A stretch of DNA of 64,000 bases from Gemmatimonadales bacterium (GCA_030697825.1 JAUYOW010000135.1:8556-72555); one strand, 5' to 3'; shown: positions 30,833 through 40,662, numbered from the stretch's first letter. Notes: generated by a model not told the origin, from the sequence alone. Numbers and translations are program-made.

Positions 30833-31672
30833 TTAGGCCTGCGCTGCGGAGCCCGCCGTTTCGCGCCAGAACTGCTCCAGGAGGTTCTCGCTGACCTTGA
30901 GGCGATAGGCCGCCGTGGACCGCATGTCGTCGATGGGGCGGACCTCGCTGCGCAGCGCGCGCTTCGCGTCGTCGAGTGAGCCACCGGCCGCGAGCGCCGC
31001 TTCGGTCTTCGATAGCCTCACCACGGTCGGCGCCACGCTTCCCAGCGCGATGCGCGGCCGGTCCGCGCGCACCGCCGCCATCACGACCTTCGAGATCGCC
31101 TGCGCCACACGCGTACCTACTTTCCTAAACCACTGCGCCCCCTCTACGGGCGGGACCTCCACCGCCACGATCAACTCGTCCGGTCGCATCACGCTCGTGC
31201 GGTAGCCGGTGTAGAACGCGGTGAACGGCACCCGCCTCTCCCCGTCCACGCTCGCCAGGACCACGCTCGCCTCGGCGGCCGCCAGCACCGGCAGCGGGTC
31301 CCCCGCTGGCGACGCGTTGGCGATGTTCCCTCCCAGAGTGCCGCGGTTCTGGACCTGCACGCCGCCCACTTCGCGCGCTGCCGCCACCAGCATCGGGAGC
31401 CGGCGTCGCACCAGGCGCGAGCGGATGATGTCGGTGTACGTCGCGAGCGCTCCGATCGAGAGCAGGTCCCCCGTCTCGCGGATGCGCCGAAGCGGGCCCA
31501 GCCGCGAGAGGTCGAGGAAGCGCGTCGCCGGCAACGTGCCGAAGTTGAGGTTGACGTAGACGTCGGTGCAGCCGGCGACGGGCACGAGCGGGCCCTTGGT
31601 GCGAAGCAGCTTGAGCGCGGTGCCGAGCGTCTTCGGCTCGAGGAGCTCGAGGGCGGAGATCGCGGTCCTCAC
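30833..31672 (-). CDS. Xanthine dehydrogenase family, FAD-binding (medium, CoxM-like) subunit
   Basis: Track ORF 30833..31966 trimmed to GTG 31672 (VRTAISALELLEP...), which has a GTGA overlap with the 2Fe-2S subunit. FAD-binding PCMH pattern ...VAGCTDV..., ...GGNIANASPAGD... Confidence 0.85.
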   Translation of the reverse strand: MRTAISALELLEPKTLGTALKLLRTKGPLVPVAGCTDVYVNLNFGTLPATRFLDLSRLGPLRRIRETGDLLSIGALATYTDIIRSRLVRRRLPMLVAAAREVGGVQVQNRGTLGGNIANASPAGDPLPVLAAAEASVVLASVDGERRVPFTAFYTGYRTSVMRPDELIVAVEVPPVEGAQWFRKVGTRVAQAISKVVMAAVRADRPRIALGSVAPTVVRLSKTEAALAAGGSLDDAKRALRSEVRPIDDMRSTAAYRLKVSENLLEQFWRETAGSAAQA

Positions 31673-32123
31673 GCGCTCGTACCCTCGGGCGCGGGGCGTC
31701 CGTTCCCGGCCGTCAGGACCGCGCGGTAGATCGCCTCGTAGCCGGTGCAGCGGCACAGGTTCCCGGCCAGCCCGACGCGGATCTTCTCGAGCGAAGGCTT
31801 GGGGCCCAGGGCGAGCGCCGCCATGATCATCCCCGGCGTGCACATGCCGCACTGCGCCCCGCCCTCGCGGATGAAGGCTTCCTGGAGCGGATGGGCGCCC
31901 TGGAGGTCCTCGATCGTCCGAACCTCGCACTCTCGCACCTGCGCGAACGGCACGAGGCACGAGCACACCGGCTCGCCGTCAACCAGCACCGTGCAGGCCC
32001 CGCACTCCCCTTCGCCGCACCCTTCCTTCGTTCCGGTGAGCCCGCACTCCTCGCGCAGCACGTCGAGCAGCCGCTTCATCGGCGGTGCGGCGACGTCCAC
32101 CGGCGCGCCGTTGAGGACCAGCT

Positions 32124-32127
<4 letters not shown>
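31669..32127 (-). CDS. Xanthine dehydrogenase family, (2Fe-2S)-binding small subunit
   Basis: 152 aa from ATG 32127 (MKLVLNGAPV...). Cluster motifs CGEGECGACTV and QCGMCTPG ... CRCTGY. Confidence 0.9.
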
Positions 32128-34241
<2,114 letters not shown>

Positions 34242-34327
34242 GGACCGCCCTCGGGTTGGGATGCGCAAAGATGTGGCGCCTCTGGACGGGCGGCAAGAAA
34301 CCGAAGCGGCTAGCGGGCCCTCGGCCT

Positions 34328-35188
34328 TCAGGGGAGTGTGGCCAGGAACTCGCGCGCCACCGCCACTATGTCCCGGTGCCGCACGTCCGCGAGGTAGTTG
34401 AGCCGCCGCATCGTGGCGTCGTCGATCCGGCCCGCCAGCTCCCGCAGCGCGGCGCCGACCTCGGGATGGCGCCGCAGCGTCTCGACTCGTACGACCGGCG
34501 CGGCCTGGTAGGGTGGGAAGTAGTGCCGGTCGTCCTCCAGTGCCACGAGGTGCAGCGCCTCGATCTGCCCGTCGGTGGAGTTCCCGGCGATCATGTCGAC
34601 CTGGCTGTCGGCGAGGGCGCGATACGTCAGTCCGAGGTCCATCACCCGCGGTGGGCCTGCGAACGGGAGGCCGTATGCTCTCTGGAGGCCGGCGAACCCG
34701 TCGGCGCGCTCCATGAATTCGTAGCCGAAGCCGCCGCGCCACGGCCTTGGCCGCAGCGCCGCCTGGGAAACCGTGCTGATCCCAGCCGCATCGTTCGCCC
34801 GGACTATCATCGCGAAGGTGTTGTTGAAGCCGAGCGGCGGGAGCCAGTCGGCACCGAATCGCCGCGAGTAGAGGCCGCGGACCTTCGCGAACGCCGTGTC
34901 GGGGTCCGTGATGACGGGCTGCTCGAGGATCGCAACGAGCGCAGTGCCGCTGTACTCGACGTACAGGTCGATCTGGCCGGCCGTGAGTGCCTGATGGCAC
35001 ACGAACGTCCCGCCCAGGTGGAACCGCCGCTCGACAGTGAGCGCCGTACGCCGCTCGATCTGCTGCGCGACGATCTCGCCCAGGATGTCCGACTCGGTGA
35101 AATTCTTCGATCCCACCACGATGCGGTCGCCGCCCCACCCACATGCCGAGACCACGACGAGCGCCACCAGTACCGACCTTCGCATCAT
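34328..35188 (-). CDS. Glycine betaine/choline-type (OpuBC/OpuCC-like) ABC transporter substrate-binding lipoprotein
   Basis: ATG 35188 (MMRRSVLVALVVVSAC...). VGSKNFTESDILGEIVAQQIE ... GQIDLYVEYSGTA is the OpuAC-domain signature. Confidence 0.85.
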   Translation of the reverse strand: MMRRSVLVALVVVSACGWGGDRIVVGSKNFTESDILGEIVAQQIERRTALTVERRFHLGGTFVCHQALTAGQIDLYVEYSGTALVAILEQPVITDPDTAFAKVRGLYSRRFGADWLPPLGFNNTFAMIVRANDAAGISTVSQAALRPRPWRGGFGYEFMERADGFAGLQRAYGLPFAGPPRVMDLGLTYRALADSQVDMIAGNSTDGQIEALHLVALEDDRHYFPPYQAAPVVRVETLRRHPEVGAALRELAGRIDDATMRRLNYLADVRHRDIVAVAREFLATLP

Positions 35189-35195
35189 GACCCCC

Positions 35196-35303
35196 ATCAC
35201 CTCATCAACTATTATCAACTATCACCTATCACCTATGATCACCTATCACCTATTATCACCTATCACCTCATCACCTATCACCTATACCTATCACCTCATC
35301 ACC
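35196..35303. repeat. Heptad tandem array: ATCACC x11 on the + strand, i.e. (GGUGAUA)n on the operon mRNA, occupying the permease/SBP intercistronic spacer
   Basis: Counted directly. Exact ATCACC starts at 35196, 35221, 35228, 35238, 35245, 35255, 35262, 35270, 35277, 35290 and 35298, plus ATCAAC variants. Confidence 0.9.
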
Positions 35304-35310
35304 TTGTAGG

Positions 35311-35952
35311 TCACCTCATCCCTCTCGGCGTCAACACCTTCTCCAAGCGCCCCAATACGAAATCCGCGACCAGCGCCATCAGCGCCGCCGGCAGCGCCCC
35401 GGCAAGTATGAGCGTGTCGTTCACCATGGCCACCCCGCGGAAGATGTACACGCCCAGACCGCCGGCGCCCACCGCCGCCGCGATCGTGGCGATTCCGATC
35501 CCCACGACCGTGGCCACCCGGATCCCGGCCATGATGACGCCCATCGCGAGCGGCATCTCCACCTGGCGGAGGATCTCCATATCGGTCATCCCCATGCCGA
35601 GCGCGGCCTCGCGCACCGCCGGATCGATGCCGCGGATCCCCGTGTAGGTATTGCGGATGATCGGCAGGAGCGCGTAGACGATCAGCGCAACGATCGCCGT
35701 CCGCGCGCCGATCCCTCCCAGGAAAGGCAGGGGGATGAGGAAGCCGAACAGCGCGAGGCTCGGGATCGTCTGGAGGACGTTGGCGGCGCCCAGCACCGGG
35801 CCGCTCAGCGAGGGCCGCCTGGCCAGCAGCACTCCGAGCGGCACGCCCACCAGGACGGCGGCGCCGGTCGCGGCGACCACGATGAGCAGGTGCTGGCCGG
35901 CGAGGTGCAGCACCTCCGCGCGGTTCCGGGAGAGGAAGTCGAGCAGGCTCAC
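35311..35952 (-). CDS. ABC transporter permease (OpuBB/OpuCB-like betaine/choline family)
   Basis: Track ORF trimmed to GTG 35952 (VSLLDFLSRNRAEV...), with a GTGA overlap with the ATPase gene. BPD-transporter EAA-like loop ...REAALGMGMTDMEILRQVEMPLA... Confidence 0.85.
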   Translation of the reverse strand: MSLLDFLSRNRAEVLHLAGQHLLIVVAATGAAVLVGVPLGVLLARRPSLSGPVLGAANVLQTIPSLALFGFLIPLPFLGGIGARTAIVALIVYALLPIIRNTYTGIRGIDPAVREAALGMGMTDMEILRQVEMPLAMGVIMAGIRVATVVGIGIATIAAAVGAGGLGVYIFRGVAMVNDTLILAGALPAALMALVADFVLGRLEKVLTPRGMR

Positions 35953-36707
35953 GACGCGAGCACCGCGGCGAAGGCCCGCGCCTCCGGATGCTCGGCGCCG
36001 CGGAATTCGGGTGGCGTCCCGAGGAACACGACGCGGCCCTCGGCGAACAGCGCGAGCCGCGAGCCGAGGCGGACCGCCTCGCGCACGTCGTGCGTCACGA
36101 ACACCATCGTCTTGCCGAGTCGCCCCGCGAGGTCCGCGAATTCCCGCTGAAGCTCGGCACGGGTGAGCGGATCGAGGGCGCCGAACGGTTCGTCGAGCAG
36201 CAGGAGCGGCGGGTCGGCGGCGAGAGCCCGGGCGATTCCCACCCGCTGCCGCTGGCCGCCGGACAACTCGTGCGGGAACCGCGCCGAGTAGCGATCGGCG
36301 TCGAGTCCCACGAGCGTTAGCATCTCCCGCACTCGCCCGCGGGTCCGCGCGGGCTCCCACCGTTCAAGCGCCGGCACCAGGCCGACGTTGCGCTCCACCG
36401 TGAAGTGCGGGAAGAGCCCGGTTTCCTGGATCACGTAGCCGATGCGCCGCCGCAGCCGGTGAGGCTCCCAGTCGCGGGTGGACCGGCCTTCGACGAGCAC
36501 GTCGCCGGCCGTCGGCCTCCGGAGGGCGTTGATGAGCTTGAGCGTGGTGGTCTTGCCGGAGCCGCTGCGGCCCAACAGGACGAGGGTCTCCCCCCGGCGG
36601 ACGTCGAGCGTGAGGTCGCGCACGGCGTCGTGCCCGCCCAGCCGGACGGCGACGCCCCGCAGCGAGACGACGGGTTCTGCTACGGCCCCCTCAGGCGCGG
36701 CGCACAC
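35949..36707 (-). CDS. ABC transporter ATP-binding protein (OpuBA/OpuCA-like); start tentative (GTG 36707)
   Basis: Walker A GRSGSGKTT, signature LSGGQRQR, Walker B LLLDEPFGALD. The chosen start overlaps the egtB stop by 17 nt. Confidence 0.85.
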   Translation of the reverse strand: MCAAPEGAVAEPVVSLRGVAVRLGGHDAVRDLTLDVRRGETLVLLGRSGSGKTTTLKLINALRRPTAGDVLVEGRSTRDWEPHRLRRRIGYVIQETGLFPHFTVERNVGLVPALERWEPARTRGRVREMLTLVGLDADRYSARFPHELSGGQRQRVGIARALAADPPLLLLDEPFGALDPLTRAELQREFADLAGRLGKTMVFVTHDVREAVRLGSRLALFAEGRVVFLGTPPEFRGAEHPEARAFAAVLAS

Positions 36708-38028
36708 ACCGGAACTTGGCGAACACGTATGGATAGTGCGGCTGGAACCAGTTGCGGAAGCTGCGGCGCACCAGTGCCGGGTCGGTCGCGTACGACGCAC
36801 CGAGCATCACGTAGTGCTGGTCGTCGAAGAAATCGGCCGAGTACCCGGCGTAGGTGCGCGCATAGGCCTTGAATCCGGGGAACGGCCCGAACCGGCTCTC
36901 CGTCCACTCCCACCCGTTACCGACGAGGTCGAGCACGCCCCAGGCGCTCGCGCCCGCCGGGTGCGCGCCCACCGGCGTCGGCGCCCAGTTTCGAAAACCG
37001 AAGTTCCCGTGCTCCGGGGCAGGCGCGGTGTCTCCCCACGGATAGGCGCGCGAGCCTCCGTCCTGCGTTCCATACGCCGCGCGGTGCAGCTCGGCCTCCG
37101 TCGGCAGCGCGGCCCCCTTCCACTGCGCGTACGCTTTCGCCTCCGCCCAGCTCACGTACACCGGCCAATCGGCGACCTGATCCAGCGGCAGCTCGTCGAA
37201 GAGGGTGCGGTAGCGCCATCCTGCGCCGCCCCGGACCCAGAACGTCGGATGATCGTGCCCCACGCGCAACCGCCACGCCCAGTCGTCTTCGGCCCAGAGC
37301 TCCGCGCGCTCGTACCCGCCCGCTTCCATGAATTCGAGGTACTCGGTGTTTCGTACCGGCGTTCGGTCCATGGTCAGCGACGCGACGCGCGTGTGGTGCT
37401 CGGGGAACTCGTTGTCCCAGCCGAACTGAGTCCGCTCGAAGTCGGCGCCGAGCGTCACCGCACCGCCTGGGACCGGGACGTCGCCGTTGGCTGCCGCCCC
37501 TTGGGTCCGGTACGCCGGGAGATCGCGCGGCTTCAGCTTCAGCGCCGGTGGCAGCTGCTGGATCATGTAGAGGAGAGTCTCATGGTGCATCAGTTCATGC
37601 TCGATCACGATCTGCCAGATCCGCCCGCGGTCGGCGAGCACGTCCCGCCCCTCGAGCGCCGCCACGTCGCCGAACGCGGCACGTATCGCGTCACGCACCC
37701 GGTCGCGGTACGCCAGCACCTGCGCCGGCGGGGGCCAGTCGGCGGGGTTAGCGGGCTCGTAGGCATCCACTCCCACGGGATCGATTCCGCGCTGGAACAG
37801 CGCGTCGAAGGCCGGGTCGAAGGGCTCGCGGCCGAGCACCCCGCGCCACACCTGGTTCCATCCGAACGCGGGGAGATGGCCCACGTAGAAAATGAATGGC
37901 TGTCGGAGGGCGATCGGCCGCGCGAGCAGTGCCTGGTCGGTGAGCAATGCGAAGATACTGTCGGAGCGCTCCCATGCGGCCTCGAGCCGCTCGCGGAGGG
38001 AGGTGTCGGACGCGAGCACGGCCGTCAT
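36691..38028 (-). CDS. egtB: Ergothioneine biosynthesis sulfoxide synthase EgtB (DinB-like N-domain plus FGE-sulfatase domain)
   Basis: ATG 38028 (MTAVLASDTSLRERL...). ...PFIFYVGHLPAF..., ...VIEHELMHHETLLYM..., ...GNGWEWT..., and a C-terminal ...FRNWF.P....FAKFRC style ending typical of EgtB. Adjacent to egtD with an ATGA overlap. Confidence 0.85.
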   Translation of the reverse strand: MTAVLASDTSLRERLEAAWERSDSIFALLTDQALLARPIALRQPFIFYVGHLPAFGWNQVWRGVLGREPFDPAFDALFQRGIDPVGVDAYEPANPADWPPPAQVLAYRDRVRDAIRAAFGDVAALEGRDVLADRGRIWQIVIEHELMHHETLLYMIQQLPPALKLKPRDLPAYRTQGAAANGDVPVPGGAVTLGADFERTQFGWDNEFPEHHTRVASLTMDRTPVRNTEYLEFMEAGGYERAELWAEDDWAWRLRVGHDHPTFWVRGGAGWRYRTLFDELPLDQVADWPVYVSWAEAKAYAQWKGAALPTEAELHRAAYGTQDGGSRAYPWGDTAPAPEHGNFGFRNWAPTPVGAHPAGASAWGVLDLVGNGWEWTESRFGPFPGFKAYARTYAGYSADFFDDQHYVMLGASYATDPALVRRSFRNWFQPHYPYVFAKFRCVRRA

Positions 38029-39020
38029 GCCGCCGCCCCGTTCGCCATGCGGCGGAGCAGCCCCAGCGCGAAGAGGTGTTCCGGGTCCGTGTACCACCGC
38101 TCGATCGCCAGCCCCGTGCCGGCCAGCAGCGCCGCGAACGACTCAGCCGTGTACTTGCAGCTGATCTCGGTTCGGATCTCGTCGCCGGGCGCGAAGTCGA
38201 GGACGAGGCCCGCAGCGGGAATGCGGACGTGCGAGACGCGCGTGGCCGCGAGCCTCATCTCGATCCACGCGCGCCGGCGGTCGTAGAAGGCGACGTGCGC
38301 GAACGCGTCAGGATCGAAGTCAGAGCCCAGCTCGGTGTTGAGGTGCCGCAGGATGTTGCGGTTGAACTCGGCGGTGACGCCCGCCGTGTCGTTGTACGCG
38401 GCCTCGAGGCGCACCGGGTCCTTCACCAGGTCCACGCCGACCAGGAACCCGTCGCCCGGCGCCAGCTGCGCGCTGACCCGCGAGAGGAAAGCCGGGACCT
38501 CATCGGGATGCAGGTTCCCGATAGTGCCCGCGAAGAGGACCGCGAGGCGCCCGCCGCCGGGCCCTAAGGCCGACAGATCTTCGGTGAAGTCTCCCACCAA
38601 GCCGCGGACGTCCACCGCCGGATAGCGCGCCGCCAGGCGGCGCACCGACTCGGCCACGAACGACGCGTTGATGTCGAACAGCCGGCAGCGTGCCTGCCGC
38701 TTCGCGCGCGTCATCGAATCCAGCAGCAGGCCGATCTTGCGGCCGGCGCCTGAACCGAGCTCCACGATCTCCGAGGGTCGCACTCGTTCGACGACCTCGG
38801 CGGCGATGGTCTCCAGCAGGCGCTCTTCGGTGCGCGTCTGGTAGTACTCGGGGAGCGCCGTGATGGCCTCGAAGAGCCGGCTCCCGCGGTCGTCGTAGAA
38901 GTACTTGCTGGGGAGCCAGGGCCGCGGCGCCATGAGGCCGGCGCGGACCTCCGCCGCCATGCGCTCCGTCCGCGCTCCGTTCCGCCGAGCCGCCTCGACC
39001 GGTGCGGGAACCTCTGCCAT
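38025..39020 (-). CDS. egtD: L-histidine N-alpha-methyltransferase EgtD
   Basis: ATG 39020 (MAEVPAPVEAARR...). ...LPSKYFYDDRGSRLFEAITALPEYYQTRTE..., ELGSGAGRK, ...FAGTIGNL... match EgtD. Confidence 0.85.
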   Translation of the reverse strand: MAEVPAPVEAARRNGARTERMAAEVRAGLMAPRPWLPSKYFYDDRGSRLFEAITALPEYYQTRTEERLLETIAAEVVERVRPSEIVELGSGAGRKIGLLLDSMTRAKRQARCRLFDINASFVAESVRRLAARYPAVDVRGLVGDFTEDLSALGPGGGRLAVLFAGTIGNLHPDEVPAFLSRVSAQLAPGDGFLVGVDLVKDPVRLEAAYNDTAGVTAEFNRNILRHLNTELGSDFDPDAFAHVAFYDRRRAWIEMRLAATRVSHVRIPAAGLVLDFAPGDEIRTEISCKYTAESFAALLAGTGLAIERWYTDPEHLFALGLLRRMANGAAA

Positions 39021-39118
39021 GTGATCTCCGTTATGGCGAATCGGAGCGGTAGATGCGGGGACCAGTAATAAAACGTATTCTCCCCCCAAGAAGTTCCTTG
39101 TCAAGGAAGGAGCCCCAT

Positions 39119-40228
39119 ATGCCCGCATGGCATCTCCTCGGCGGCAAGTCCGAGTTGCTGGCGCGCGTCCCGTTCACGGTCAAGCTGGAGCGCCACCAGA
39201 TCGCGGTCTTCTTCCACGAGGAACGGTTCCGGGCGATCGGCAACAGCTGCAACCACCAGGGCGGACCGCTGTGCGAGGGGCAGGTTCGCGGCGAGTTCGT
39301 GATGTGCCCGTGGCACGGCTGGGAGTACAGCGTCATCACCGGCAAGGGACCCGAGGGCTACGACGAGGAGCAGGTGCCGGTCTTCGAGGTAGAGGACCGA
39401 GAGGACGGCGTCTACGTCGCCACGCCGCCCGTGATGCCCCGCAAGCTCGTCAAGCACAAGCCGTCACACCTCCTCGAGGGGCACCAAAAGCCGGCCGGCG
39501 CGCCGGCCCGGGTACTGGGCATCTCCACCACCGCGATGGACGACGCCAATCCGCGTTACTCCACATCGGACTCGCTGCTCGGCCACGCCCTGGACCTGGC
39601 CCGCGAGCGGGGCGCCGAGACGAAGCTGGTGCGCTTGAACGAGCTGAAGTTCCGTCCCTGCGAGGGGAACTACTCGAAAGCGGCGCGCGCCTGTACCTGG
39701 CCGTGCGCGATCACCGAGCGCGACCCCGATGACCAGCTCACCGTAGTGTACGAGGGCCTGGTGCACTGGGCCGACGTGGTGCTCATCGCGACGCCGATCC
39801 GGTGGGGCAGCGCCTCGTCGCTGTACTTCAAGATGATCGAGCGCATGAACTGCATCCAGAACCAGATCACCATCCACAACAACGTCCTGATCGGGAACAA
39901 GGTCGCGTCGTTCATCATCACCGGCGGGCAGGACAACATCCAGGCGGTGGCGGGCGGGATGATGACCTTCTGGTCGGAGCTGGGCTTCGTCTTCCCGCCC
40001 TTCCCATTCATCGCCCATTCGCGCGGATGGGACGCCGAGGACATGCAGACCAACGTGCGGCAGGTGAAGGCGAGCGAAGCGCTCCGCACCGCCGCGCGTG
40101 AGCTGGCGGGGCGCGCGATCGACTTCTGGGGGATCGTGGACCGCCACCGCGCAGAGATGGGCAAGCCGATGGAGCGCGCGGGCCGGAAAGCACAATCGTT
40201 GGTGGCGAGAGAGGCGGCGACGACATGA
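39119..40228 (+). CDS. Fusion protein: N-terminal Rieske [2Fe-2S] domain plus C-terminal flavodoxin-like NADPH-dependent FMN reductase / iron-sulfur flavoprotein domain
   Basis: ATG 39119 is preceded by AAGGAAGGAG. Rieske motifs CNHQGGPL and CPWHGWEY. The C-terminal half (VLGISTT...LIATPIRWGSASSLYFKMIERM...FIITGGQDN) looks like an NADPH-FMN reductase fold. Confidence 0.7.
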   Translation: MPAWHLLGGKSELLARVPFTVKLERHQIAVFFHEERFRAIGNSCNHQGGPLCEGQVRGEFVMCPWHGWEYSVITGKGPEGYDEEQVPVFEVEDREDGVYVATPPVMPRKLVKHKPSHLLEGHQKPAGAPARVLGISTTAMDDANPRYSTSDSLLGHALDLARERGAETKLVRLNELKFRPCEGNYSKAARACTWPCAITERDPDDQLTVVYEGLVHWADVVLIATPIRWGSASSLYFKMIERMNCIQNQITIHNNVLIGNKVASFIITGGQDNIQAVAGGMMTFWSELGFVFPPFPFIAHSRGWDAEDMQTNVRQVKASEALRTAARELAGRAIDFWGIVDRHRAEMGKPMERAGRKAQSLVAREAATT

Positions 40229-40662
40229 CCGAGCGCATGCGGGTAGCGAAGGCGTACGAGAAGGCGCTTTTCGCGGGGCGAATGGACGAGGTAGCGGGCT
40301 ACCTCACCGACGACGTCGTGTACTGGGTCGCGGGCGCACCGCCGATCGGCGGCGAGTGGCGTGGCAAGGAGGCGGTGCTGCGCGCCTTCGACCAGCGCGA
40401 ACCCGGACTGGGTGCGGCCGACTGGGGGTATGAGGACCTCGAGCGCTCGTGGTACGATGCCGAGGACCGGGTGATCGTCGAGATCCGCGAGCGCAGCTGG
40501 CTCAAGAGCGCGCCGTCCGACGTGATGGACCAGCGGACCTGCGCCGCGATCCGGTTCCGCGGAGAAAAGATCTGCGAAATGCGCGACTACACCGACTCGC
40601 ACTTGTACGAGGAGTTTCTGAAGCGGCACCGCGGTCAGCTGCCGAAGTTCGCGGGGCGCTGA
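40225..40662 (+). CDS. SnoaL-like / NTF2-fold protein (ketosteroid-isomerase-like)
   Basis: 145 aa. ...AKAYEKALFAGRMDEVAGYLTDDVVYWVAG...RGKEAV...F... is the pattern of SnoaL-like domains. ATGA overlap with the upstream gene. Confidence 0.65.
   Translation: MTERMRVAKAYEKALFAGRMDEVAGYLTDDVVYWVAGAPPIGGEWRGKEAVLRAFDQREPGLGAADWGYEDLERSWYDAEDRVIVEIRERSWLKSAPSDVMDQRTCAAIRFRGEKICEMRDYTDSHLYEEFLKRHRGQLPKFAGR

Follow-up and report, generated by a model that had tools for sequence, protein, structure and literature searches.

An egtD-egtB operon of a Gemmatimonadales bacterium is coupled to a betaine-type ABC importer that may take up ergothioneine or hercynine

To our knowledge, EgtUV, a system of non-producers such as Firmicutes and Helicobacter pylori, is the only bacterial importer of ergothioneine described so far, and we know of no ergothioneine exporter or recapture system in a producer. 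Making a compound and recapturing it is known for other solutes, namely ectoine (TeaABC of Halomonas elongata) and glucosylglycerol (GgtABCD of Synechocystis), for which the producer keeps a high-affinity, binding-protein-dependent importer that recovers its own leaked product. We analyzed a 64-kb stretch (the window) of a metagenome-assembled genome of a soil bacterium of the Gemmatimonadales (phylum Gemmatimonadota; 3.37 Mb, 98% complete), in which a minus-strand operon carries, in order, egtD, an egtB-type synthase gene, and genes for an ATP-binding cassette (ABC) ATPase, a permease, and a substrate-binding protein (SBP) lipoprotein. The importer genes are tightly coupled to egtD and egtB, the linkage is conserved, and the SBP co-occurs with EgtD across phyla. 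We propose, with a probability of roughly 0.55, that the importer takes up or recaptures a histidine-derived betaine, ergothioneine and/or hercynine. TeaABC and GgtABCD differ from this importer in that they belong to other transporter families and lie outside the biosynthetic operon, and ergothioneine, unlike ectoine and glucosylglycerol, is a redox metabolite and not an established osmolyte.

The EgtU/EgtUV systems (Streptococcus pneumoniae SPD_1642-1643, Listeria monocytogenes BilE, and H. pylori; structures 7TXK, 7TXL, 4Z7E, and 8DP6/8DP7) share with the window importer an OpuAC fold of cluster F-III, the residues K242, T296, R379, N339, and E375 (S. pneumoniae numbering), a single permease gene, a short ATPase that has no CBS domain by Pfam, and a SnoaL2-type gene at the locus, which is found in S. 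pneumoniae (spd_1644) and in Gemmatimonadales. The S. pneumoniae type is defined by binding and import of ergothioneine with discrimination against hercynine and glycine betaine. The EgtU/EgtUV systems differ from the window importer in three respects. The window SBP is a separate lipoprotein, whereas EgtUBC is a fusion of permease and binding domain; the window SBP scores only 140–163 bits against the EgtUC structures and carries six pocket substitutions; and the window importer lies inside the biosynthetic operon of a producer, whereas EgtU has been described in non-producers. Similarity is highest to OpuBC and OpuCC (187 and 169 bits), with the motifs GS.NFTE, EY.GT, and GFNNT in common, and Tyr and Phe occupy the F293 and Y337 positions, as in AfProX. 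The window SBP nevertheless has a clamp Lys where the sensors derived from Thermoanaerobacter OpuBC (the iAChSnFR scaffold) have Ile, and it has Asn in place of one cage Tyr. The window system also differs from OpuBC and OpuCC in having an ATPase without CBS domains and a single permease gene, and in being tied genetically to egtD and egtB rather than to osmotic regulons.

The sequence-only reading of this DNA had described a five-gene unit chained by overlaps of 4, 17, and 4 nt, with a repeat-filled spacer before the SBP gene. The overlaps are exact, the spacer is as described, and all five genes lie at the positions given in that reading. The overlap of egtD with egtB is ATGA and that of the ATPase gene with the permease gene is GTGA, both read directly from the sequence. 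The 17-nt overlap with the end of egtB follows from a GTG start at 36707, the last start codon before the conserved N terminus of the ATPase. The permease and SBP genes are separate, with a 122-nt spacer between them, and GAGGTGAT lies 7 nt 5' of the ATG (35188) at which the SBP gene starts. A scan for terminators inside the operon found no credible one, and the overlaps, together with the promoter and terminator scan, suggest that the five genes are co-transcribed.

The window EgtD exceeds the equivalog cut-off of its family and matches Mycobacterium smegmatis EgtD (4PIM) at 264 bits. Four blocks around the histidine site (TIGNL, AY.D.AGVTA.FNRN, IEM, and TE.SCK) are unchanged relative to 4PIM; from EgtD structures, we take these blocks to be the ones that bind histidine. 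The synthase had been assigned to type II and, with it, to the short cysteine-dependent route of ergothioneine synthesis. The route stands but the type does not: the nearest structure is EgtB-IV (8VIH, 231 bits), followed by OvoA (179 bits), type I EgtB (176 bits), and type II EgtB (107 bits; 6QKI/6O6L, Chloracidobacterium CthEgtB). The histidines of its GH and EH..H blocks align with those of 8VIH. EgtB-IV is cysteine-dependent, and a short route that is independent of gamma-glutamylcysteine is still likely for this operon, judging from these matches. As the sequence-only reading had noted, egtD and egtB have no egtA, egtC, or egtE neighbors; we sought these three genes near the operon and found none. 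A search of the whole genome (98% completeness) gave no match to EgtC, a best EgtE score of 93 bits against a cut-off of 400, and a single gene of the Methyltransf_33 (egtD) family.

A two-gene pathway consisting of EgtD and a cysteine-dependent EgtB-IV was reportedly described by Ireland et al. in 2024 (as cited in PMC13674229). The window operon resembles that pathway in that its EgtD lies above the equivalog cut-off and the best match of its EgtB is EgtB-IV. It differs in that the EgtB reaches just 231 bits against 8VIH and does not reach the NCBIfam cut-offs for ovoA_Nterm (285 against 400), egtB (263 against 360), and SenA, so that the type IV assignment is a provisional one. In a survey of synthase neighborhoods, egtD was found in 69.9% and egtE in 6.2% (PMC13674229). 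Neighborhoods with egtD only are common in that survey, and the window operon matches them, its genome having no egtA, egtC, or egtE.

The transporter has the complete set of parts of an OpuB/OpuC/ProX-type system: an OpuAC binding protein, a BPD_transp_1 permease, and a ProV-class ATPase. The permease is encoded by a single gene, and therefore the membrane part is probably a permease homodimer. The ATPase is a nucleotide-binding core only; ABC_tran is its sole transporter-type domain, it has no CBS tail, and its match to TIGR01186 covers model positions 4–216 of 363. An osmosensing CBS tandem at the C terminus of the ATPase is typical of OpuA, OpuC, and ProV. The ATPase of an EgtU-type plasmid system of Ligilactobacillus salivarius likewise has no Pfam CBS domain. 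The SBP begins with the signal peptide MMRRSVLVALVVVSAC, which carries the lipobox VSAC, and its mature form has 271 residues. Among solved structures, it matches the Thermoanaerobacter OpuBC scaffold (187 bits) and Bacillus subtilis OpuCC (169 bits) and OpuBC (157 bits); within the ergothioneine class, it matches H. pylori EgtUC (8DP6, 163 bits), Listeria BilEB (150 bits), and S. pneumoniae EgtUC (140–144 bits). These scores of 140–187 bits and the cluster F-III OpuAC fold agree with the earlier placement of the importer in the OpuB/OpuC/EgtU class. The best plasmid match of the SBP is a 513-residue protein of pSYLB of Synechocystis sp. PCC 6714 (L038, 7287-8828; 45% identity), which is annotated as a glycine betaine ABC transporter SBP and has the pocket signature of the window SBP (given below). 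Its SBP-like part is C-terminal, no annotated ATPase gene lies beside it within the stretch shown, and it may be a permease fusion.

The order egtD-egtB-ATPase-permease-SBP occurs at seven loci from three genera of the Gemmatimonadales family to which this genome belongs, and two more loci are cut by contig ends. Because the same five-gene order recurs in three genera, the arrangement is not one of chance. The family's 25 genomes comprise 11 with both SBP and EgtD, four with EgtD only, none with SBP only, and 10 with neither. A pattern scan of named genomes placed more than 530 loci in the subfamily of the window SBP (SBP-A), in Gemmatimonadota, Acidobacteriota, Cyanobacteria, Dormibacterota, Binatota, and others. 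Neighborhoods and pockets were counted in the best 80 of these loci, which come from several phyla. Both egtD and egtB are adjacent to the importer in 10 of the 80, in Gemmatimonadota, Acidobacteriota, Dormibacterota, and Binatota, and these loci show three arrangements (co-directional, divergent, and downstream). A full-length EgtD is encoded elsewhere in 40 of the 48 genomes in which the genes are not adjacent, which is weak evidence taken alone, as EgtD is present in 74% of Terriglobia.

We also sampled 121 Terriglobia genomes evenly; EgtD is present in 89 of them (74%) and the SBP in 67; 64 genomes have both, three have the SBP alone, and 29 have neither. The SBP was found in 64 of the 89 EgtD-positive genomes (72%) and in 3 of the 32 EgtD-negative genomes (9%), an odds ratio of 24.7, and its gene lies at most 5 kb from egtD in 17 of the 67 cases. 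The pairing of egtBD with this transporter, which had been noticed in a single genome, is not limited to that genome and recurs in three genera and in several phyla. That the pairing keeps recurring is a strong argument for a role of the transporter in ergothioneine metabolism.

A second egt operon (L033, 4849-10723), in a genome of another family of the same order (G039), carries egtB (DinB_2 and FGE-sulfatase domains), egtD, a GCS2 gene that is glutamate-cysteine-ligase-like (egtA-like), a gene for a 247-residue ATPase, and a gene for a fused OpuAC-permease importer of 577 residues. The binding domain of this importer is N-terminal, the reverse of the order in EgtU, and its pocket (group B) has the AfProX-type K-P-F and a complete cage of four aromatic residues. 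The L033 operon is an independent case in which a betaine-type importer is joined to ergothioneine genes.

The SBP pocket was read in a MAFFT alignment numbered on S. pneumoniae EgtUC (SpEgtUC; 7TXL), with residue roles taken from Zhang et al. (PMC9732360). The SpEgtUC and BilEB sequences were recovered from alignments to an EgtU-like plasmid gene, and the residues of the H. pylori EgtU pocket are as quoted in PMC12922746. Over 15 positions (242, 243, 244, 274, 275, 293, 296, 337, 339, 341, 375, 379, 401, 419, and 443), the signature reads KIGTTFTYNYERPYY in SpEgtUC and KNFGTYTFNFERLNY in the window SBP. Of the 80 related loci, 41 have exactly KNFGTYTFNFERLNY, and the others depart from it at 2 of the 15 positions at most. 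Equivalents of the carboxylate clamp (K242/T296/R379) are present in the window SBP and at all 80 related loci, and the window SBP also keeps the Asn floor (N339) and the imidazole-contacting Glu (E375 of SpEgtUC). The substitutions relative to SpEgtUC are G244 to F, I243 to N, F293 to Y, Y337 to F, Y341 to F, and Y419 to N. The aromatic cage formed by F293, Y341, Y419, and Y443 reads Y, F, N, and Y in the window SBP, which leaves the four-wall cage incomplete; the Y419 position is Asn throughout the SBP-A subfamily, apart from Ser or Asp in a few members. The region of the pocket at the side-chain end of the ligand is remodeled relative to SpEgtUC, and this change is invariant. The retained K/T/R clamp and Glu make choline a less likely ligand than a betaine with a carboxylate, and the intact clamp and the three cage positions that are still aromatic would fit such a betaine.

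Both the substrate and the way in which the cell would benefit, by recapture or by scavenging, are inferred. An SBP lipoprotein and a type I permease indicate import, and this mode of transport, the recurrent linkage to egtBD, the carboxylate clamp, and the three cage aromatics together favor uptake of ergothioneine or hercynine. In the mechanism that we envisage, EgtD would trimethylate histidine to hercynine, the cysteine-dependent, type-IV-like EgtB would add sulfur to hercynine, and an unlinked general pyridoxal-phosphate lyase would complete ergothioneine. The importer, composed of the lipoprotein SBP, the homodimeric permease, and the CBS-less ATPase, would bring in ergothioneine or hercynine. 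Through import, the cell would recapture leaked product and scavenge molecules released by soil fungi and actinobacteria, and import of hercynine would spare three S-adenosylmethionine (SAM) per molecule.

Several observations weigh against uptake of ergothioneine or hercynine. First, both specificity determinants of EgtU are absent. Zhang et al. (PMC9732360) identified G244 and the F293/Y337 switch as the key determinants of ergothioneine specificity; the window SBP has Phe at position 244 and Tyr and Phe at positions 293 and 337, as in the glycine-betaine binder AfProX. Membership in EgtU, which the sequence-only reading had proposed to examine by a pocket comparison, is not borne out, and the window SBP, to judge by these residues, is not a member of the S. 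pneumoniae-type EgtU group. In the similarity network of Zhang et al. (PMC9732360), subclusters beyond the SpEgtU-like one also lack these marks, and work on H. pylori is cited there for ergothioneine uptake of lower affinity by some such transporters. H. pylori EgtUC binds ergothioneine with a Ka of about 5x10^5 per M (PMC12922746), and absence of the S. pneumoniae-type marks therefore does not exclude ergothioneine binding. Second, the nearest solved relatives of the SBP are choline and betaine binders (the OpuBC scaffold and OpuCC) and not S. pneumoniae EgtUC. Third, the identical pocket signature also occurs beside a Methyltransf_33 paralogue that lacks the histidine-binding residues of EgtD, and in a few genomes without EgtD or EgtB; the few genomes that have the SBP only, without EgtB, look like pure scavengers. 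Fourth, most Terriglobia have EgtD and relatedness makes the genomes non-independent, so that the co-occurrence statistics and their p-value overstate the case. Finally, this importer is the sole recognizable betaine transporter of the genome, which has one OpuAC gene and no BCCT carrier.

The last of these points means that the importer could be a general osmoprotectant importer, taking up glycine betaine, proline betaine, or similar compatible solutes and co-regulated with ergothioneine synthesis as part of the response to soil desiccation and oxidative stress. We consider this explanation unlikely, although it is the one that survives best beside uptake of ergothioneine or hercynine. It would account for the AfProX-like residues at the G244, F293, and Y337 positions, for the best matches to OpuBC and OpuCC, and for the second egt-linked importer (L033) with its full AfProX-type cage and K-P-F, and it agrees with the filing of such transporters as housekeeping in PMC13674229. 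It does not lead one to expect that the SBP should track EgtD (72% against 9% of Terriglobia; in the Gemmatimonadales family, 11 of the 15 genomes with EgtD against none of the 10 without it), or that egtBD should be adjacent to it in three arrangements in four phyla. In addition, Asn, Ser, or Asp at the Y419 cage wall is atypical of high-affinity glycine-betaine binders, and osmoregulated ATPases of the OpuA/OpuC type have a CBS tail, which is missing from the window ATPase.

The substrate could instead be tied to Methyltransf_33 chemistry, as histidine or a partly methylated histidine, another amino-acid betaine produced by the EgtD-like paralogues, or glycine betaine serving as methyl donor for regeneration of the three SAM that each hercynine costs. 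In 16 of the 80 loci, the gene directly 5' of the ATPase gene encodes a divergent Methyltransf_33 paralogue, which scores about 77 bits against PF10017; one further locus has it at a distance of about 5 kb. The paralogue takes the place of egtD-egtB in many Gemmatimonadales and two Acidobacteriota. It reads TLGAF, MNHSYKY, and AGYDNPLNRRF where EgtD has TIGNL, TE.SCK, and AGVTA.FNRN. A major facilitator superfamily gene is often next after it. Occurrence of the same pocket signature beside this non-EgtD paralogue, in 16–17 of the 80 loci, speaks for such a substrate, and replacement of the cage Tyr by Asn might suit a less methylated or bulkier amine. Nevertheless, the window SBP keeps three cage aromatics and the Asn floor, as in quaternary-amine binders, histidine importers normally use another class of SBP, and the paralogue is absent from this genome; we judge a substrate of this kind to be improbable, and more so than an osmoprotectant. 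Operons can trap unrelated genes, and active ergothioneine secretion has been proposed, with no exporter known (PMC12689799), but the translational coupling and the recurrence in several phyla and arrangements make a chance or historical adjacency, or an ergothioneine exporter, very improbable, and an SBP lipoprotein with a type I permease generally points to import.

We also built a quick tree of the SBPs. In this tree, the clade of the window SBP (99% SH-aLRT support) is apart from the Methyltransf_33-linked SBPs of Gemmatimonadales, and the egtBD-adjacent loci are spread over several separate clades. The window clade groups with an Acidobacteriota/Cyanobacteria branch (82% SH-aLRT support) and not with the other Gemmatimonadales SBPs. 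This grouping is a hint that the entire egtDB-ABC operon was transferred horizontally.

Features of the operon, of its flanks, and of the variant loci are collected in the table.

Table. Features of the egtD-egtB-importer locus (positions in the window) and loci with the Methyltransf_33 paralogue
Feature	Position	Strand	Basis or remark
Sigma-70-like promoter, TTGACA-16 nt-GAGAAT	39077-39104	-	About 57 nt 5' of the egtD start; consensus match 10/12, putative function
egtD, L-histidine N-alpha-methyltransferase (makes hercynine)	38025-39020	-	TIGR03438, 331.6 bits (cut-off 290.9)
EgtB-type non-heme-iron sulfoxide synthase, nearest type IV (OvoA branch)	36691-38028	-	DinB_2 and FGE-sulfatase domains
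ABC ATPase, ProV/OpuBA class, 252 aa	35949-36707	-	PF00005
Single ABC permease, 213 aa	35311-35952	-	PF00528
Tandem heptad array between permease and SBP genes, GGTGATA x ~12 on the mRNA strand	35196-35304	-	Sequence
OpuAC-fold SBP lipoprotein, subfamily SBP-A	34328-35188 (or 35218)	-	PF04069, 187.6 bits
Rieske [2Fe-2S]-FMN (flavin mononucleotide) reductase fusion	39119-40228	+	Pfam; divergent from egtD
SnoaL_2 protein	40225-40662	+	Pfam; divergent from egtD
Xanthine-dehydrogenase-family molybdenum hydroxylase genes (large and FAD subunits)	30833-34313	-	About 88 nt 3' of the SBP stop
Methyltransf_33 paralogue at the ATPase gene	L043, L045, L048-L050, L057, L059, L060, L062-L065, L067, L073, L107		

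The Rieske-FMN reductase fusion and SnoaL_2 genes, which diverge from egtD, are translationally coupled to each other, and their products are 72–82% identical in relatives. All 9 family genomes that carry the pair have it beside egtD. Elsewhere in the Gemmatimonadales, the pair is convergent to Methyltransf_33-ABC loci, and it is also present in two genomes with neither EgtD nor SBP. The pneumococcal egtU operon likewise has a SnoaL2-type gene, spd_1644, and the pair is possibly accessory to the operon described here. Going a step further, we tentatively suggest that SBP-A, with its pocket K-N-F ... Y ... F-N-F ... E ... R ... N ... Y, might be a second, structurally distinct family that binds ergothioneine or hercynine, and that the Rieske-flavoprotein/SnoaL2-like pair might be an ergothioneine-related accessory comparable to spd_1644; we hold this extension with less confidence than uptake of a histidine-derived betaine itself. 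At the other end of the operon, the molybdenum hydroxylase genes (32124-34313) were considered as part of the unit and rejected, because in relatives they are 1.4–3.2 kb away or absent.

The heptad array in the spacer was considered as an operon-specific Shine-Dalgarno enhancer, and this idea was also rejected. The permease-SBP spacer of several relatives (L022-L032) contains heptad arrays with unrelated units (GGTGAGA, GGTCTTA, GAAGGCT, and GTCGACT). Because the 3.37-Mb genome contains 127 period-7 arrays, the array in the spacer belongs to a genome-wide class of repeats and is not specific to the operon. The arrays often form inverted pairs whose members lie close together, and common units are GGGGAGC/CCGCTCC, GGTGAT[AG], GCCAACG, and GGGTGTA. 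They resemble the heptamer repeats of cyanobacteria known as STRR (short tandemly repeated repetitive) sequences.

The sequence-only reading had regarded the linkage of egtBD to such an importer as undescribed for a producer, and this is correct in part. A published table already gives OpuBA-type ATPases (13.6%) and permeases of the OpuBB/AfProX-like kind (5.4%) among the neighbors of these synthases, at distances of up to 5 kb (PMC13674229; JACS 2026, Table 1); the paper groups them as housekeeping genes and leaves them unstudied. Re-uptake of ergothioneine through betaine carriers has been proposed in engineered Corynebacterium (PMC12689799). A literature search found no binding or transport experiment on the SBP-A subfamily.

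If the importer does take up ergothioneine or hercynine, soil producers would also compete for and recycle these compounds, and transporter genes that were set aside as housekeeping in a genome-mining survey would acquire a meaning. The SBP would represent a new pocket solution for thio-histidine betaines, with possible use in sensors and in the engineering of strains in which re-uptake lowers titers. If SBP-A is indeed a second binding family, making and recapturing would be built into the ergothioneine physiology of environmental producers.

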